A stretch of DNA of 64,000 bases, from NCBI GenBank assembly GCA_000004695.1, contig CM000154.2:3808001-3872000 (forward strand), given 5' to 3'. The notes beneath the pieces were generated by a model. That model worked only from the letters and a program-made list of their open reading frames with translations. It was not told the DNA's origin and did no database searches. This document shows, piece by piece, positions 4,159 through 37,726 of this stretch. Source of the stretch: Dictyostelium discoideum. Taxonomy: Eukaryota. Each line of letters opens with the position of its first letter. Position 1 is the stretch's first letter. The position numbers and the translations under genes were made by a program.

Positions 4159-5047
4159 TTAATTATTACCACTAATATCAGGTGTATTAATAATATTAAC
4201 ATTTTTAATTTGAAATAAGTTTGTTAAAATTTCAAATTCTTGATTAATTAAATTTCTACCATGATAAAGATAATTTGTAATATTTTTTAAAAGTACAGAT
4301 GCTGGACGACGAATGAATGGTAATAAACCAATCAAAGTTAAATTTTTAGTTCTCTTATAAGTTCCAAACATTAGGAAATAGATGCCATTCCTTCTAACGA
4401 AAATCATTCTCTCTATTAATATTTGAACTTTTCTTTTCTTTCTTTTTTTCACTATATCCTCTGCTATCGAGTTTGTAGTTTGGTCGTGAATATATGCTAT
4501 TGAGGAGGATGTTGTGGTGGTTGAAGTGGATGATGACTGTGACATTGCAGAGATGGAGGATGACGATGATTGTGTGTCACTTATTAGGGTTTGCGCAATG
4601 GTTTGTTCATCTTGTAATTGCTGTTGTTGTTGTGGTGGTGGTGGTTGGTTGCTGTTCCAATTGGTGAACACTTCAAAGATTCTTTCAAATGTTTGTTCAA
4701 AATCTTCACTTTGACTCTTTGAACAGTGAAGTAGTACATTCAATTTCAATTTTATATACTTTTTAAATGCATAACTACACTGTAACATTTCAATCTCTTC
4801 ATCGATTGAAAATGGATTTATCTCTTTTACAACTTTACAATTAACCTTGTCATACTTTGAATTGGGTTTAAATCCATTATTGAATATCTTATTCTCAAGT
4901 TCAATCTTTGGATATGATTTACATGTATCTCCAAATTCTTTTGATGCTTTATCTAATTTTAATAATAAATCTTGAAATATTTCACTTTTAACTCCATTAT
5001 TATTATAATTATTATTATTATTTAAAAAATTATTATTATTATTACAT

Positions 5048-5083
<36 letters not shown>

Positions 5084-5253
5084 GTTGAATTATTATTATT
5101 ATTGTTATTATTATTATTATTATTATTAATATTTTGTACAATTTTTGTGGTGTTATTACTACTTTCATCAACTTCCATCATCATGGTTTGTTCTTGAAAA
5201 TTACCATCATTAATAATAATATTATTATTTTCAATATTATCAAATTCTATCAT
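4159..5253 (-). CDS. hypothetical Asn/Gln/Ser-rich protein with basic KKRKKRK patch (NLS-like)
   Basis: 364-aa ORF. Low-complexity N/Q/S tracts typical of Dictyostelium. The C-terminal ~120 aa is non-repetitive (…KKRKKRKVQILIERMIFVRRNGIYFLMFGTYKRTKNL…). No family recognised. Confidence 0.4.
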
Positions 5254-5822
5254 TTTTTTTTTTTTTTTTTATTTTTTATTTTTTATTTATTTTTTTATTA
5301 TTATTACTTATTTTTTTATATGTGTGAATTGGTTGGTTTGGTTTAATAAAAAAAAAAAAAGAAAAAAAAAAAAAGTGTGTGTGAAGTGTGTAAAGGCTAA
5401 AAATTAATTTTTTTTTTTTATTTTTTTATAATATTATTTTTTTTTTTTTTTTTATTTTTATGTGTTTAATTGGTTGTCTACTAAATTCTATAAATAAAAA
5501 AAAAAAAAAAAAAAAGTGATGACTTTTAATATTAAAAAAAAAAAAAATAAAAAAAAATAAATAATATAAAAAATAAAAAAAATAAAAAAAAGAAAAAAAA
5601 ATATTAAAAAAAAAAAAATAAAAAAGTAAAATAATTAATTAAAACTCAGAGATAAAATCTGGTTTTTTTTTTTTTTTTATTTTTTTTTATTTTTTTTTAT
5701 TTTTTTTTTTTTTTTTTTTTTTTTTTGAAATTAAATTAATTTGTAACTTGTAAAAAGGGCAAATCGGTGAGTTTTTTTTTTTTTTTTTTTTTCAAGTCTG
5801 ATGTTTAAAAAATAAAATTTAG

Positions 5823-13075: not shown

Positions 13076-13334
13076 TTATATTTTTATAATACCAATATTA
13101 TTAAAGAAATCAATTAAATTAAATAGATGATTCATTTCTGCATTACTAATTAAAAATTGTAATTCTTTTAATGTAAATAAACCACCACCATCACAATCAT
13201 TATTTGATTTTTGTTTCTTTATTATCAAAAATTTACTATAATTATAATAAATATGTTTAAATGATTTTAAATCCAAAACTAAACAAATTTGTTTAAAATT
13301 TTCAAAATATTCTTCTTTGTTGGTGTCATTGTTT

Positions 13335-13366
<32 letters not shown>

Positions 13367-15232
13367 AATTGAATTAATATTTGGTAAGAAATAATAATTA
13401 AAAATTTGATCAATTATTAAAGATAATCTTGTTTTCTTTAATAAAGGAACAACGATTTTAAAAATATTTTTTGGAGAGATTGTAATGGAAAATTTAGAGG
13501 ATGATAATGCCCAATCAACCCAATTTTTATCATTTAGTCTATTTGTTAAAATCAAACCAGCAAAAAATGTATTAAAATCTAAAATACATCTTCCACATTT
13601 AATTTCATCACCATCATTAAAACTAAATAACCAATCTAATAAATTTATATCCCATGTATTTAATAATTGAATTGGATCATGTAATGATTGAAATGGTTGA
13701 TAGGATTTAATTGTTGATTTTGTTTTTTCAATTAGATGTTTAATATTTTCATAGTGTTGTTGGTTGAGGATCGGTTTGGAATGTTGTAAAATGGTTTCAT
13801 CAAAATTCCAATTAATTTCTGGTTTATTAACAACATGTAAGGCAATTTTTGAAAGCTGGTATTGGTCGCTTTGTTTAAGGGTTGGATAGTTAACAAAATT
13901 TAAACTATTTTTAATTGTTAATAGAAATTTATCATATTTTTCATGGCCAATAAATTGTTCAAATCTTTTTAATAGATCCATTCTTCCTAATTGATACCAT
14001 ATTTCTACACTATTTTTGTCTTGTTCAACGAGATCAAATATCCAAGGAAAATTATTAAAACAATATTCAAACATTGAAATTGACATGAAGCAGCCAAAGA
14101 TGAAATGTTTAAAATTTTCATTAGAATTGGAAGTCAAAGTTTTAAAAAGTAAAGAGGCTTGAGAAATTCCACCTAATTCTTCAACTGCTAATTCTAAAAG
14201 ACCAATATCATCATTTCTAATCAATAAACGTAATACAAAAAGAGTAATATTAGAATTTCCAGGTTCAGAGATGGGATGAATAATCCCTTTGATAAATTGG
14301 ACTTTTCTCTCTCTATTATTTTTACAAAATTTAAATAATTGAATTTTATTTGGTATCGTCGAAGGCCAAACATTTGTTAAATAATTTGGATTTTTTTTTT
14401 GAATTTGTTCAAAAATTGAATGATCCCCAAATTTTAATGAAATTTTTAAAAGGAGTGGTTCTATGTTGACGCTTAAGGATTGTGATTCTTCCTTATTTAT
14501 TAATATATAATCATATAGTGGAATCCCTACATATAAACGAAGATTATTAAATAATTGTATTACCATATCTTTAATTGATTTCGTTGAAGAAGAAGAAGAA
14601 GAAGAAGAAGAAGAAGAAGAAGAAGAAGAAGAAGAAGAAGAAGAAGAAGAAGAAGAAGAAGAAGAAGAAGAAGAAGAAGAAGAAGAAGAAGAAGAAGAAG
14701 AAGAAGAAGATAATGATAATTCTTGATCCAATAAAAATATTAATTTTGAATTTAATTGTTCATTTGTATATTCTATTTTTGACCAATCAAAATTTTTATT
14801 TGAAAGTAATTCAAATAGTTTAACAGATTCAATCAAATTTGATAATGAAAATATTCTTAAAATTGATTTTTTTCCAAAAAAAAAATTACATTGGATTTCA
14901 GTTTGCAACATTGTTTTAATGGGTTTGCTATCAATGATTGATTTGAATTTTCCATTTGAATCAAATAAATAGTTTAAAAATTTCATGGTACTTTTTTTTC
15001 CACTTGAACTAATACATCTGAAAAACTTTGACTCAATTAATAGGTTGGATATTTCTTTTTTTTCTTTTTTTGATAAATATATAGTATTTACCATATAATC
15101 TTCAGTTAAATATTTATATATTTTTAATTTTGAATATATACAAGCATTTCTAATTGCACTAGTTAGTAATTGGATTTTTGTAATTGCTGGATTATTTATT
15201 TTTGATGTTGGATTTGTTTTTTGAATATTTAT

Positions 15233-15276
<44 letters not shown>

Positions 15277-15946
15277 GTGATGATATTTGTTCAAATTGAT
15301 AATACCCTTCCTCCAATAATATCTTTAAAGCTATTAAACATCCATGTTCAATTGCTGATAATAAAACTTGATAATAGTTATTTAAAAAGTATTTATTATA
15401 ATTTAAAAATAAATATTGATAAAAATTAACATCATCTTTAATTGCTTTAAATATATATTCATACCAATAAAGACTTTTAATTGGTTTGGTATTGGCACTT
15501 TGAGTAGTTCTGGAAACTAGTTGTTGTTGTTGTTGTTTTTGTATATATTCATTATATTCAATATAAAGTTGATTTTTATAAAATTTATCTTTTAATAACT
15601 CTATTTGATTATTCTTTACCATAAATGATAAATCATTAATACAATGATAGGATTTTAAAAAAGAATGATGAAAATTTGAAAAGATCTTTTTAAATAAAAC
15701 TTTGTTATTAAAGATTTTCCAAAATAATCTTTCACTAATTTCAATATCTTTAATTGGTAAATCATCGATTTTACTTTTAAATGTAATTTCTTTAGTTTGT
15801 AATTTATTTTCTTTTTTCTCTTTAATATATTTATTAATTCTTTTTATAATTTCAGATTTATTTCCTTTTATTTTAATATTATATGATTTTGCAATCTTAA
15901 TAATTTCATGATAATTTTGATTTTCGTTTATCATATCAATATCCAT
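13076..15946 (-). CDS. hypothetical 956-aa protein with poly-Ser tract; paralog of the 38545..41100 protein (shared ERLFWK[IV]F.NK.LF and F..F...[FY]PW[IL]F.L motifs)
   Basis: Single long ORF. The (GAA)n run at 14586..14710 encodes poly-Ser on the minus strand. N-terminal region DIEISERLFWKIFNNKVLFKKIFSNFHH and internal SMFEYCFNNFPWIFDL match NNERLFWKVFRNKYLFYLIIDNL and IDIFKFIHSNYPWLFKL of the second protein. Confidence 0.5.
14586..14710. repeat. (GAA)n microsatellite, coding (poly-Ser on minus strand)
   Basis: About 125 bp of gaa repeats inside CDS 13076..15946. Confidence 0.9.
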
Positions 15947-16090
15947 TTTTTTTTATTTTGATTACATTCAAAAAAAAAAAAAAAAAAAAAAAAATAAAGC
16001 CAAAAACGAAAAAAAAAAAAAAAAAAAAAAATTTAAAAAAAAAATATCTAAATGTTACACTTTTATTGGAAATTTTTAAGATAATTTTAA

Positions 16091-17545
16091 TTATTTTGGT
16101 AAAGCAATTGTTTCAGGTGTGTATGATGGCTCTTTTCCACCATTATTTTTAATAATAACTTTTCTTAAAAGTTCAGCAGTCTTTTTGAAATGTTTGGAAT
16201 TTGCTAAATCTAAAGCACCATTCATTAAAGTTGTGAAACCTTCTTTACTTGTATCAGTAAATTCTACATGTTTTTCTAATTTACTTTCAAATCTAAAAAC
16301 GAATAGGTCATCATCAGAAAATTCACTATTTCTTCTGAAGTTCATGAAATTTTCAAAGAGAGTATGGGTTGATGGTGATTTTAAGGCAAGTCTCTTTGAT
16401 AAATCTATCATTTTCTTAAATTCAATACCATTCTTGATTCCTTGGATTGGACCTACAAATTGGAGATTACTTTCTAAAGCAGTACTAGTTGCTTCATCAA
16501 TTGGTGTTAAAATTTGTTCTAATTGTGAATTTGATTGACGATTCATTTCTTTTAATTGATCATTTGTTATACCATCAGCATCAACAATTCCACCTGTACC
16601 AAATGAGAGTATTATAATTCTATCATTTGGGAATTGATTTCTAGCTTCACCATATGCAATCAAAATTGGATTATTATACAAAAATCCACCATCGTAAAAA
16701 GTTACATCATCCTTTGTTATTAATTTAAATGCACCTGGAATATCAGAAGTTGCTCTAATTGCTTCGATTACAGATAATTGATTTTTATCATCACCTGAAC
16801 CAACAATAAATCTTTGTGAATCAATAATCAATTGTTTATTATCATTATCAACTGGTTTATAGTTTGAAATGATATCTACAATAAGTTCATCTTCATTTCC
16901 TTCTTTCTTTGGTGAACATGCAGTAACAAAGAATTTTTGATTATTTTCTATAGGTCCAGAATTACCAATTAAGGTAGTTCTTGCAAGTTCTTCTAATTTA
17001 GATGAATCGTATGCTTCAGCTCTTAAATAGATATTTTTAATATTTTCTAAATACTATTTTAATATTTAAAAAAAAAAAAAAAAAAAAAAACCTATAAGTA
17101 TACTAAACTTGATTTTTTTTGATCGGTCATTTGACGATAAAAAAAAAATAAATAAAATAAAATAAAATAAAATAAAATAAAAAATGTATATTAATAAACA
17201 CTTACTGAACTAACAAATATTTTTTTTGCATCTTCACCAACATATAAATTTGATAAAGCTTCATTGTTAAGTTTTCCAACAGCCTTTGAGATAGCAATTA
17301 TACCACCAGTACTTGTACCACCAACTAATGAAGATTCATTAATTAAATCACAACCTACTTCTTGAAAAAGTTTTTCTAATAACTATCTCATTTTTATTAT
17401 ATTTTTTTTTTTTTTTAGTATTTTTTTTTTTTTTTTTTTTTCTTTTTTTTTTTTTAATTAATAATAAACATACCCAAACTGTATAATAACCCCTTGTACC
17501 ACCACCATCAATTACAGTTACTATTCTAATTGGTTTATCTGTCAT
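16091..17545 (-). CDS. patatin-like phospholipase (PNPLA domain), copy A, ~403 aa; 3 exons: join(17545..17474,17382..17206,17053..16091) on minus strand
   Basis: Exon 1 MTDKPIRIVTVIDGGGTRGYYTVW carries the patatin GGGxRG oxyanion motif; donor GTATGT. Exon 2 LLEKLFQEVGCDLINESSLVGGTSTGGIIAISKAV… carries the G-x-S-x-G lipase serine motif GTSTG; donor GTAAGT. Exon 3 YLENIKN…FIVGSGDDKNQ…TFYDGGFLYNNPILIAYGEARNQ… carries the catalytic Asp in DGG. Phases consistent (72+177+963 nt). Confidence 0.85.
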
Positions 17546-17993
17546 TATTTGCAATATAAAAATAAAACAATAAAAGGATAAATATTAAATATTAATAATT
17601 AAGAGAAATAAAATAAAGTAAAAAAAAGAATTTTTTTTTTTTTTTTATTTTTATACAAAAAATAAAAAATCAAAATTAAAATAATATTATTTTAAAATAA
17701 TCTTTTTTTTTTAAAATAATTATGAAAAGTAAAATGAGATCTCGATCGATCATCTTTTTAAAAAAAAAACAATCAATTATAAAAATCTAAAAAAAATCGA
17801 CCCACAAAAAAAATTATCAATAATTTCGTTTTTTGGTCATCTTGTTTCGAAACACGAAAAAAAAAAGTAGTTTGTTAAATGTTTGTTTGGTGAAAGGAGA
17901 AAAAAAAAAAAAATCCCAAACATTATTTAATAATTTACAATAAAATATATTTTTAAGAATTTAAAGTTTATTTTTTATTATTATTTTATAAAG

Positions 17994-18043
<50 letters not shown>

Positions 18044-18054
18044 TTTAATTAAAT

Positions 18055-19450
18055 TTATGGTGGACAAATAGTTTCAGATATATATGATGGTTCTTTTCCA
18101 CCATTATTATTAGTAATTACTTGTCTTAAAAGTTTCGCAGTTTTTTTGAATTGTTCAGAATTTGATAAATCAATTGCACCATTCATTAAGGCTGTTAAAC
18201 TTTCTTTACTAGTATCACTAAATCCAACTTGTTTTTCTAATTTACTTTCAAATCTAAATACTAAAACGTTTTTATCAGGAGTTTTGCTATCTTTTAAGAA
18301 TTTCATGAAATTTTCATAGAGGGTATGTGACGATGGAGAATTTTTTACTAATTTCAAACATATTTTTAAATTATCAAGGAATTGTTTAACATTCTGAGCT
18401 GGGTCACCACTTTGTAGTAAAGTTTTAGTTGCTTCATCATGTGGTGTTAAAATTTGTTCTAATTCTAAATTTGATTGAATATTGATATCCTTTAATTGAT
18501 CATTTGTAATTCCATCAGTATCAGTAGTTTCAGCTGTACCAAATGAGAGTATTATAATTCTATCATTTGGGAATTGATTTCTAGCTTCTCAATATGCAAC
18601 TAAAATTGGATTATTATACAAAAAGCCACCATCGTAAAAAGTTACATCATCCTTTGTTATTAATTTAAATGCACCTGGAATATCAGAAGTTGCTCTGATT
18701 GCTTCGATGGTTGATAATTGATTTTTATCATCACCAGAACCAACAATAAATCTTTGTGAATCAACAATAAAGCTTTTCCTATCATTATCAACTGGTTTAT
18801 AGTTTGAAAGGATATCTAATGCAACATCATCTTTATTTCCATTCTTTGGTGAACATGCAGTAACAAAGAAATTTTGATTATTTTCTATAACTCCTGATGG
18901 GCCAACTAAAACTTTTATAGCATAGTCTTCAAGTTGATCTGAAATATATGCTTCACCATTTTCAATTATATTTTCAATTATTTTTAAATACTTTTATAAT
19001 TATTATTATTTTTTTTTTTGAAACATAAAATTATAAAAAAAAAAATTAAAAAAAAAGTGATTAGAAAAAAAAAAAATAATTAATTATTGGATTAAAATAA
19101 AATTTATTACTCACTGAATCAACAAAAATATTTTTTGCAGCAGTCCCAGCATATAAATTTGATAATTCATCATTTCCTGTTTTACCAACAGCTTTTGAGA
19201 TGGTAATTATACCACCAGTACTTGTACCACCAACTAATGAAGATTCCTTAATTAAATCACAACCTGCTTCTTCAAAAAGTTTTTCTAATAACTATTTTAT
19301 TTTATATTTTTTTTTTTTTAGTTTTTTTTTTTTTTATTTTTTATTTTTTTTTTTTGTAATATTAAAATTAAAATATACCCAAACGGTATAATATCCTCTT
19401 AAACCACCTCCATCAAGTACTGAAATTATTCTAATTGGTTTATCTGTCAT
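18055..19450 (-). pseudogene. patatin-like phospholipase copy B (tandem paralog of copy A), same 3-exon structure join(19450..19379,19291..19115,18990..18055) but with an in-frame TGA at 18589..18591
   Basis: Exon 1 MTDKPIRIISVLDGGGLRGYYTVW; exon 2 …LVGGTSTGGIITISKAVGK…; exon 3 YLKIIENIIENGEAY…TFYDGGFLYNNPILVAY*EARNQ…. Copy A has gca tat GGT gaa gct where copy B has gca tat TGA gaa gct. That is two substitutions in one codon inside an otherwise near-identical stretch. The ORF track therefore shows only the C-terminal 100-aa fragment 18055..18357 (TTG start). Confidence 0.6.
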
Positions 19451-19635
19451 TTTTAAACTTATAATAATATTAATAGAAATGAAAAAATAATATTATTTTA
19501 AAAAAAAAAAAAGTTTAAAAAGAAATTTAAAAAAAAATTGTTTATTTCCCATAGACTTGGAAATCAAAGAAAAAATTTAAAAAAAATAATTAAATAATAA
19601 AAAATTCATTTGAACCACTATTATTAGGACTACAC

Positions 19636-19754
19636 AAAAAAAATTGACCAACCCATCAAAAAAAAAAAAAGGAAAACAAAAAAAAAAAAAAAAAAAGAAA
19701 ATAAAACAAAAAAAAAATCTTGATCTTTGCATCAAAAAAAATTGACCAACCCAT
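19636..19754. promoter_or_regulatory. two perfect 21-bp direct repeats aaaaaaaattgaccaacccat (19636..19656 and 19733..19754) upstream of patatin copy B; related motif aaaaaaaatcgacccacaaaaaaaa at 17789..17813 upstream of copy A
   Basis: Read directly from the sequence. Both lie about 190-300 bp upstream of the respective minus-strand start codons. Candidate shared cis-element of the duplicated patatin promoters. Confidence 0.35.
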
Positions 19755-36930: not shown

Positions 36931-37620
36931 ATTTTTAAAAATGTATGTGTAGGGCGAAAAAATAAAAATAAAAATAAAAATAATTTGTTAGTGTAAAAGA
37001 AATCGTATGAAGCCAGGCTCAAATCCAAACCTTTTAAAAATTCAATCTTTTTTTTTTTAATTTTTTAATTTTTTTTAATTTTTTTTTTTATTTTTTGTTT
37101 TTTTTGTTTTTTTTTTTTATACAATTTTTGACAATTACCAGTCAAATTAAACAAAAAAATTTTCCGTGGAAGTATGTGTCGCTTTATTATAAACAAATAA
37201 TACTGGGATTGAAAAATTTACGTTAATAAATAGAAAAAACAATCAAAATAAACGGTTAATTTTTTTTTTTTTTTTAAAAAAGATATTTTTAAACTTCAAT
37301 AATATCAGATCAAAAAACTTCTTCTTTTTCGAAATGTTTGATTTGATTTGATTTATTTACGTTCTCAAGAATGTTTCGCTTAGTTATCAATTTATATTTA
37401 TAGAGCCATAATATAATAATAATAATGCAAAAAAATATTCACAGTAAAATTGAAAAAGCAATTTTTATTTTTATTTTTTTTTCCACAAGAAATTTTTTTT
37501 TTTTTTTTTAAAGAATTTAAATTGTACAAAAACCTTCATTGGTAGAGCCACGCTTTTCAATCACTTTTATATAATAAAAAAATTGAACTCGAGCAGATTT
37601 CAACTAAACAACATCAACAT

Positions 37621-37693
37621 GTCGGGTTGGCTCAGTTGGTAGAGCGTAGGTCTCATAATCCTAAGGTCCAGAGTTCGATCCTCTGACTCGACA
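37621..37693 (+). tRNA. tRNA-Met (anticodon CAT), 73 nt, no encoded CCA
   Basis: Cloverleaf read by hand. Acceptor GTCGGGT/ACTCGAC (one G·T). D-arm GCTC-AGTTGGTA-GAGC. Anticodon arm TAGGT-CTCATAA-TCCTA (anticodon CAT at 34-36). Variable loop AGGTC. T-arm CAGAG-TTCGATC-CTCTG. Box A (TGGCTCAGTTGG) and box B (GGTTCGATCC) are both present. Confidence 0.85.
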
Positions 37694-37726
37694 ATTATTT
37701 TTTCAATAATACTCCTTTAAGATCAA

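Follow-up and report, generated by a model that had tools for sequence, protein, structure and literature searches.

The window, which is the whole 64,000-nucleotide stretch of Dictyostelium discoideum DNA analysed here, carries a tandem pair of patatin-like phospholipase genes on the minus strand. Next to them lie an NPL4 homologue and a gene for a 956-aa serine-rich protein. The base composition of the region is ~20–29% G+C with long A/T homopolymers, and an Rfam scan of the whole window at the gathering threshold returned a tRNA-Met as its sole match. The original prediction described the pair as patatin-like copies with matching three-exon structures, and this proved correct. The exons measure 72, 177, and 963 nt in one gene (copy A) and 72, 177, and 936 nt in the other (copy B), and both intron positions are in phase 0 and coincide between the copies. 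All four introns have GT..AG ends and are 87–152 nt long.

Copy A (17545..16091, minus strand) encodes 403 aa in an open frame. It consists of exon 1 (17474..17545), exon 2 (17206..17382), and exon 3 (16091..17053), the last of which closes with a TAA stop codon at 16093..16091. The spliced product is identical to the D. discoideum AX4 protein XP_635843.1 (UniProt Q54GD5), which is named 'patatin family protein'. The splice model was verified by an intronless RNA-derived contig (L002, from the public run SRR24091728), which encodes the same protein with one substitution. Copy A contains the motifs DGGGTRG, GTSTG, and DGG. Its frame is intact in every genome compared, and dN/dS between orthologue pairs is 0.09–0.14.

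Copy B (19450..18055, minus strand) comprises 394 codons with one in-frame stop. Exon 1 (19379..19450) starts with the ATG at 19450..19448 and encodes the oxyanion-hole motif DGGGLRG, and exon 2 (19115..19291) encodes the active-site serine motif GTSTG. The introns at 19378..19292 and 19114..18991 are followed by exon 2 and exon 3, respectively. Exon 3 (18055..18990), in which the frame is open except at codon 217, ends with the terminal TAA at 18057..18055; the DGG motif is also present in copy B. It had been predicted that copy B reads TGA where copy A reads GGT at about codon 217, and this was borne out. The TGA (18589..18591, minus strand) is aligned with the GGT codon of Gly218 of copy A (16651..16649, in ...IAYGEARNQ...) and differs from it at codon positions 1 and 3, by G>T at 18591 and T>A at 18589 on the coding strand. 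This is the single in-frame stop of copy B, whose start codon, splice sites, and terminal TAA are all intact. Beyond the TGA the frame remains open for 177 codons (residues 218–394), which encode peptides specific to copy B, TAETTDTDGITNDQLK and the SGDPAQNVK region.

Both copies matched the Pfam family PF01734 far above the gathering cut-off of 27.7 bits, with 96.1 bits for copy A and 85.7 bits for residues 1–216 of copy B. The match covers residues 11–215, so that the TGA lies right at its end. The motifs DGGGxRG, GxSxG, and DG[GA] are found in both copies at positions that are invariant in the family alignment, and the two copies are predicted to be patatin-like phospholipases with a Ser-Asp dyad. 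An AlphaFold2 model of copy A, of moderate confidence (pTM 0.73, pLDDT 63.9), places residue 218 inside a helix (212–223), which is followed by strands at 228–234 and 333–338 and by well-predicted C-terminal helices. Foldseek searches with this model returned CapV/CapE, Pat17, iPLA2-beta, and PlpD at a probability of 1.0. The alignments to these solved patatin-fold enzymes run over ~380–430 columns, nearly the whole 403-residue chain, and the sequence alignment to CapE continues past the TGA site into the IIILSFG strand.

The syntenic region, with the NPL4 homologue, the patatin genes, and the gene for the 956-aa protein, was taken from five further genomes: two other D. discoideum assemblies (L005 and L006), two genomes named 'D. 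cf. discoideum' (L007 and L008), and D. citrinum (L009). Over the whole gene, copy A of the window differs by 3.1% from that of L005/L006, 4.9% from L007, 6.7% from L008, and 14.2% from L009. These distances group L005 with L006, join this pair to the window, and then add L007, L008, and L009 in that order. Comparison of the orthologous loci, a check proposed with the original prediction, revealed GGT or, in copy A of D. citrinum, GGC at this codon in eight other sequences (six copies A and two full-length copy-B orthologues), and TGA in the window lineage only. Since all the other A and B sequences carry GGT or GGC, the TGA is derived and specific to the window lineage. Neither a GGA nor a TGT intermediate was seen at this codon in the other genomes compared. 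L005 and L006 have deleted the site, so that the TGA may have arisen before or after the split from them.

Copy B is broken in other ways in the relatives. In L005 and L006 it is a relic of ~570 bp with more small indels; 117 nt of exon 2 have gone, and GTSTG with them, as have 677 nt of exon 3 that contained DGG and the TGA site. In L007, a 17-nt deletion shifts the frame in exon 3, a 12-nt deletion takes out the DGGGLRG motif, a 3-nt deletion lies beside GTSTG, and intron 1 has acquired an insertion of ~1 kb. The L008 copy has lost its start codon (ATG>AAG), its frame is shifted by 2 nt close to the 3′ end, and it has other indels. In D. citrinum, tblastn detected no trace of copy B. These lesions show that copy B was destroyed independently and in different ways throughout the rest of the sampled D. 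discoideum complex. Copy B thus seems to be dispensable, lost as it is in related lineages.

The similarity between the two copies is uneven. Long stretches of nucleotide identity had been reported between them, and such runs do exist (the longest are 71, 55, and 42 nt), but overall the coding sequences are only 81.4% identical and the proteins only 71%. Identity reaches 92–98% over approximately codons 160–238 and falls to 30–60% near codons 91–110 and 271–300. The highly similar central tract occupies 16589..16825 in copy A (codons 160–238) and 18529..18765 in copy B (approximately codons 159–237), both on the minus strand. The ~60 nt surrounding the TGA had been described as identical to copy A. 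This holds on the 3′ side, where identity continues for 55 nt, but not on the 5′ side, where the nearest differences are only 9 and 10 nt away (18600 and 18601).

The dS between copies A and B was 0.29 overall and 0.23–0.6 outside the central tract, which is similar to the dS of copy A between D. discoideum and D. citrinum (0.46). A recent duplication, as originally proposed, is ruled out by this value and by the presence of copy-B orthologues in four diverged genomes, whose copies A are 3–7% different from that of the window. Within codons 160–238, the dS between A and B was 0.12–0.15 in all three of the genomes where both copies are full-length, and orthologues are at least as far apart in the same tract. 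Derived states that are unique to A and B of one genome numbered six in L008 and two in the window, as compared with 0–1 in cross-genome controls. The near-identity in the centre is best explained by an old gene-conversion tract, in which the two copies would have been homogenised. On the best reading, part of the tract at least would go back to the common ancestor, and further events would have followed in L008; conversion may, less certainly, also have occurred inside the window lineage itself.

Substitution patterns were used to estimate how long copy B was maintained. Between the window and L007 copies B, with the displaced exon 1 excluded, 38 synonymous and 23 non-synonymous changes gave a dN/dS of ~0.15 (Fisher P=4e-13 versus equal rates). 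Since the ratio is this low, copy B was under selection for most of the time since the two lineages split. Branch ratios, counted from changes unique to each sequence, were 0.32 for copy B of the window, 0.14 for that of L007, 1.08 for that of L008, and 0.04 for copy A of the window. The value of ~0.32 rests on 22 changed codons, 10 synonymous and 12 non-synonymous. It is below the neutral expectation (P=0.008) and marginally looser than the constraint seen in copy A (P=0.02–0.06), and so falls, on small counts, between the values typical of copy A (0.04–0.14) and neutrality (1.08 in L008). This pattern suggests a recent loss of function. The substitutions as a whole indicate that purifying selection acted on copy B until comparatively recently.

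Two changes within a single codon had been regarded as unusual, a view that the branch data do not bear out. There are 25 coding changes unique to copy B of the window, and with this number a double hit in one or more codons has a probability of 0.40. Three codons were in fact hit twice (99, 178, and 218 in the numbering of copy A; P=0.01). Moreover, of the 24 intervals that separate adjacent changes, 6 measure 3 nt or less (P=0.002), and several pairs share the 2-nt spacing of the TGA pair. Close spacing of substitutions is thus a general feature of this branch and is compatible with multinucleotide mutation events.

An error of sequencing or assembly had been offered as one explanation of the TGA. 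Copy B would then be intact, with GGT or some other sense codon as the true reading; two miscalled bases would be enough for this, and the rest of copy B is indeed intact and bears signs of past constraint. The same TGA is, however, present in GCA_054883475.1 (chromosome CM142511.1, locus tags ACTFIT_), which matches the window at 99.67% across a length of 18.9 kb. Between these sequences 62 alignment columns differ, mainly in homopolymer lengths and indels in A/T runs, so that they are separate assemblies, made from one strain or from two that are nearly identical. Yet gene B is 100% identical between them over 1,396 nt, TGA included, though the flanks differ. In addition, the lesion consists of two substitutions in non-repetitive coding sequence, whereas the differences between the assemblies are mainly A/T-run indels. 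The protein search also returned no copy-B protein from AX4, with copy A of AX4 (XP_635843.1) present in the same collection; this fits with AX4 having no annotation for copy B or marking it as a pseudogene. The same collection contains two copy-A transcript contigs, neither of the AX4 type, and the count of zero copy-B transcripts is therefore uninformative. The second assembly may itself depend partly on the first, for instance through reference guidance or a shared laboratory lineage. Because a second, non-identical assembly carries the same gene B with the TGA, an assembly error is unlikely, and taking all these points together we consider an intact copy B behind miscalled bases highly improbable.

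Copy B could also be functional in spite of a genuine TGA. If the UGA were decoded as selenocysteine or read through, a full-length enzyme of 394 aa would result, and the frame that stays open for 177 codons beyond it is what such a product would need. D. discoideum has a few selenoproteins and the Sec machinery. No SECIS element matched within 15900..19700 on either strand even at an Rfam E≤10, where sub-threshold snoRNA/miRNA noise was all that appeared, and a scan for the SECIS core motif and helix from the TGA down to copy A (18588..17546) gave 0 matches; the absence of a SECIS element had been expected. At the homologous position every A and B sequence has Gly and a more distant paralogue (P0006) has His; Cys never occurs there. 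Only one lineage has the TGA, and in all the others the gene is being lost. The UGA-GAA context, which is not known to favour read-through, also speaks against it. The original prediction rated recoding as much less likely than the other options, and with no SECIS and an ancestral Gly we agree and regard it as scarcely credible. Alternatively, copy B might act as a 216-aa patatin-domain protein, or the stop might be spliced out as part of a 42-nt intron. The 216-aa product would keep the whole PF01734 match, GTSTG, and DGG with both catalytic residues, the 42-nt segment is bounded by GT..AG and its length is a multiple of three, and the branch dN/dS is below 1. The intron is in fact part of a public gene model, KAM9948096.1 (380 aa), in which 18588..18629 (minus strand) is removed together with GGFLYNNPILVAY* so that the TGA is bypassed. 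The segment, however, encodes GGFLYNNPILVAY with the residues G205, G206, N210, N211, and P212, which are invariant in the family alignment, and it is far shorter than the four real introns of the pair. Because it contains these five invariant residues and forms normal coding sequence both in copy A and in the RNA-derived contig L002, the 42-nt intron is most probably an annotation artefact. As for the shorter product, the fold matches span nearly all 403 residues, and the C-terminal 45% that would be lost therefore belongs to the same domain; other lineages, moreover, lose the whole gene. A functional copy B of either kind is accordingly very unlikely. Even less probable is a copy B kept alive through decoding of the UGA by a non-canonical signal other than SECIS, or through a 216-residue fragment serving as a functional short enzyme or regulator. 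If copy B were alive, the dN/dS of 0.32 would reflect continuing selection and not recent death.

With a probability of about 0.88, we interpret copy B as a non-processed, duplicated pseudogene of a patatin-like phospholipase that was disabled by the change of GGT (Gly) to TGA at codon 217. Relatively recent pseudogenisation was among the explanations first put forward, and it is favoured by the derived state of the TGA, by its being the sole lesion of copy B, and by the branch dN/dS of ~0.32. Judged from its sequence, copy B would be an ordinary and fairly young pseudogene. The two substitutions may have arisen in two steps, for example by a synonymous change of GGT to GGA followed by GGA to TGA, or in one multinucleotide mutation. 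The identity around the site would stem from the old gene-conversion tract and not from a recent duplication. Translation would stop after Tyr216, within the helix downstream of the catalytic Asp of the DGG motif. The loss of ~177 residues, or ~45% of the single domain, would remove two predicted β-strands and the C-terminal helices, and a working enzyme would not be expected from the remainder. As the premature stop lies in the last exon, exon-junction-dependent decay of the mRNA would not be expected, and a truncated polypeptide might be made if copy B is transcribed.

The locus is thus a small case of parallel loss, in which a tandem duplicate held under purifying selection would have been disabled separately in each sampled lineage, and the homogenised tract still ties copy B to the functional copy A. 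The public annotation should be corrected, with KAM9948096.1 entered as a pseudogene and not as a protein of 380 aa with an invented 42-nt intron. Literature searches on patatin pseudogenes in Dictyostelium and on its new genome assemblies found nothing relevant. The case opens no long-standing question.

Among known systems, the plant patatin Pat17 (1OXW/4PKB) shares the motifs DGGGxRG, GTSTG, and DGG with both Dictyostelium copies and matches the model of copy A in fold (1oxw and 4pkb, Foldseek E ~2e-7), but the sequence identity is only 13–15%. The best matches among solved structures are the bacterial CBASS phospholipase effectors CapV/CapE (8ZR9, 9JEK, 9IOM), with sequence E values of 9e-10 to 5e-8 and fold E values of 5e-10 to 5e-8 at TM 0.5–0.66. 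They differ from the Dictyostelium pair in that identity is 17–19% and that no gene for a cyclic-nucleotide synthase lies beside the pair; the likeness is one of fold only, and nothing points to activation by nucleotides. Eukaryotic selenoprotein genes resemble copy B in the in-frame UGA with an open frame downstream, but copy B has no SECIS, and the homologous position is Gly and not Cys or Sec.

The pair CYP21A1P/CYP21A2 is the textbook example of a duplicated pseudogene that was disabled by nonsense mutation and still exchanges sequence with its functional neighbour. Copy B departs from this type in showing no sign that its lesion has passed to copy A, and its homogenised tract may go back to the ancestor shared by the D. 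discoideum complex. In other respects it follows the same pattern: it is a tandem duplicate that retains its introns, it carries a single premature stop and a homogenised tract, and its relatives decayed independently.

In the public gene model of copy B, the tandem paralogue of the intact phospholipase gene copy A, the in-frame TGA is skipped by means of a 42-nt GT..AG segment (18588..18629, minus strand), which KAM9948096.1 (ACTFIT_001442, 380 aa) treats as an intron. The segment removes from the predicted protein part of the catalytic DGG motif as well as the invariant NNP motif. This intron is an invention of the model, and the record should be classified as a pseudogene.

The lineage-specific substitutions in the copy B CDS (18055..19450) were significantly clustered, with gaps of 3 nt or less in 6 of 24 cases (P=0.002), and several pairs of them were spaced by 2 nt. 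This pattern suggests multinucleotide mutation events or micro-conversion.

The copy-B orthologue of the D. cf. discoideum assembly L007 (GCA_054859205.1), B_L007, is located at 4651..6979 of L007. Its intron 1 contains an insertion of ~1 kb with 26% G+C (4750..5778), which is possibly a mobile element; comparison of this insertion with the window gave no match. The annotated protein P0005 joins an ORF from the insertion to the patatin exons. Although at least four lesions disable B_L007, a dN/dS of just 0.14 was obtained for its branch. Either the lesions are all very recent, or the estimate is distorted by conversion from copy A or by small counts.

Upstream of copy A, a 14-nt motif containing G+C, GATCGATCGAGATC (17738..17751, minus strand), lies in an otherwise A/T-rich spacer, 160–220 nt 5' of the start codon. 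It was kept in all five D. discoideum complex genomes (L004–L008) and was absent in D. citrinum. The motif is a candidate promoter element. A 10-bp palindrome, GTTTCGAAAC, located ~308 nt upstream of copy A, was restricted to the lineage of the window.

The neighbouring 956-aa ORF (13076..15946, minus strand) contains long poly-Ser and poly-Asn runs, and its length varies between strains (899–1014 aa in L005–L008), presumably owing to repeat-length variation. Rfam and ARAGORN searches of the whole 64-kb window detected a single tRNA-Met (CAT) gene (37620..37694, plus strand) and no other match.

No cyclase gene was found near copy A (16091..17545). When its protein, Q54GD5, was compared with solved structures, the top matches by both sequence and fold were CapV and CapE. 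These bacterial CBASS effector phospholipases share just 17–19% identity with Q54GD5 and rank above plant patatin and iPLA2-beta as its matches.
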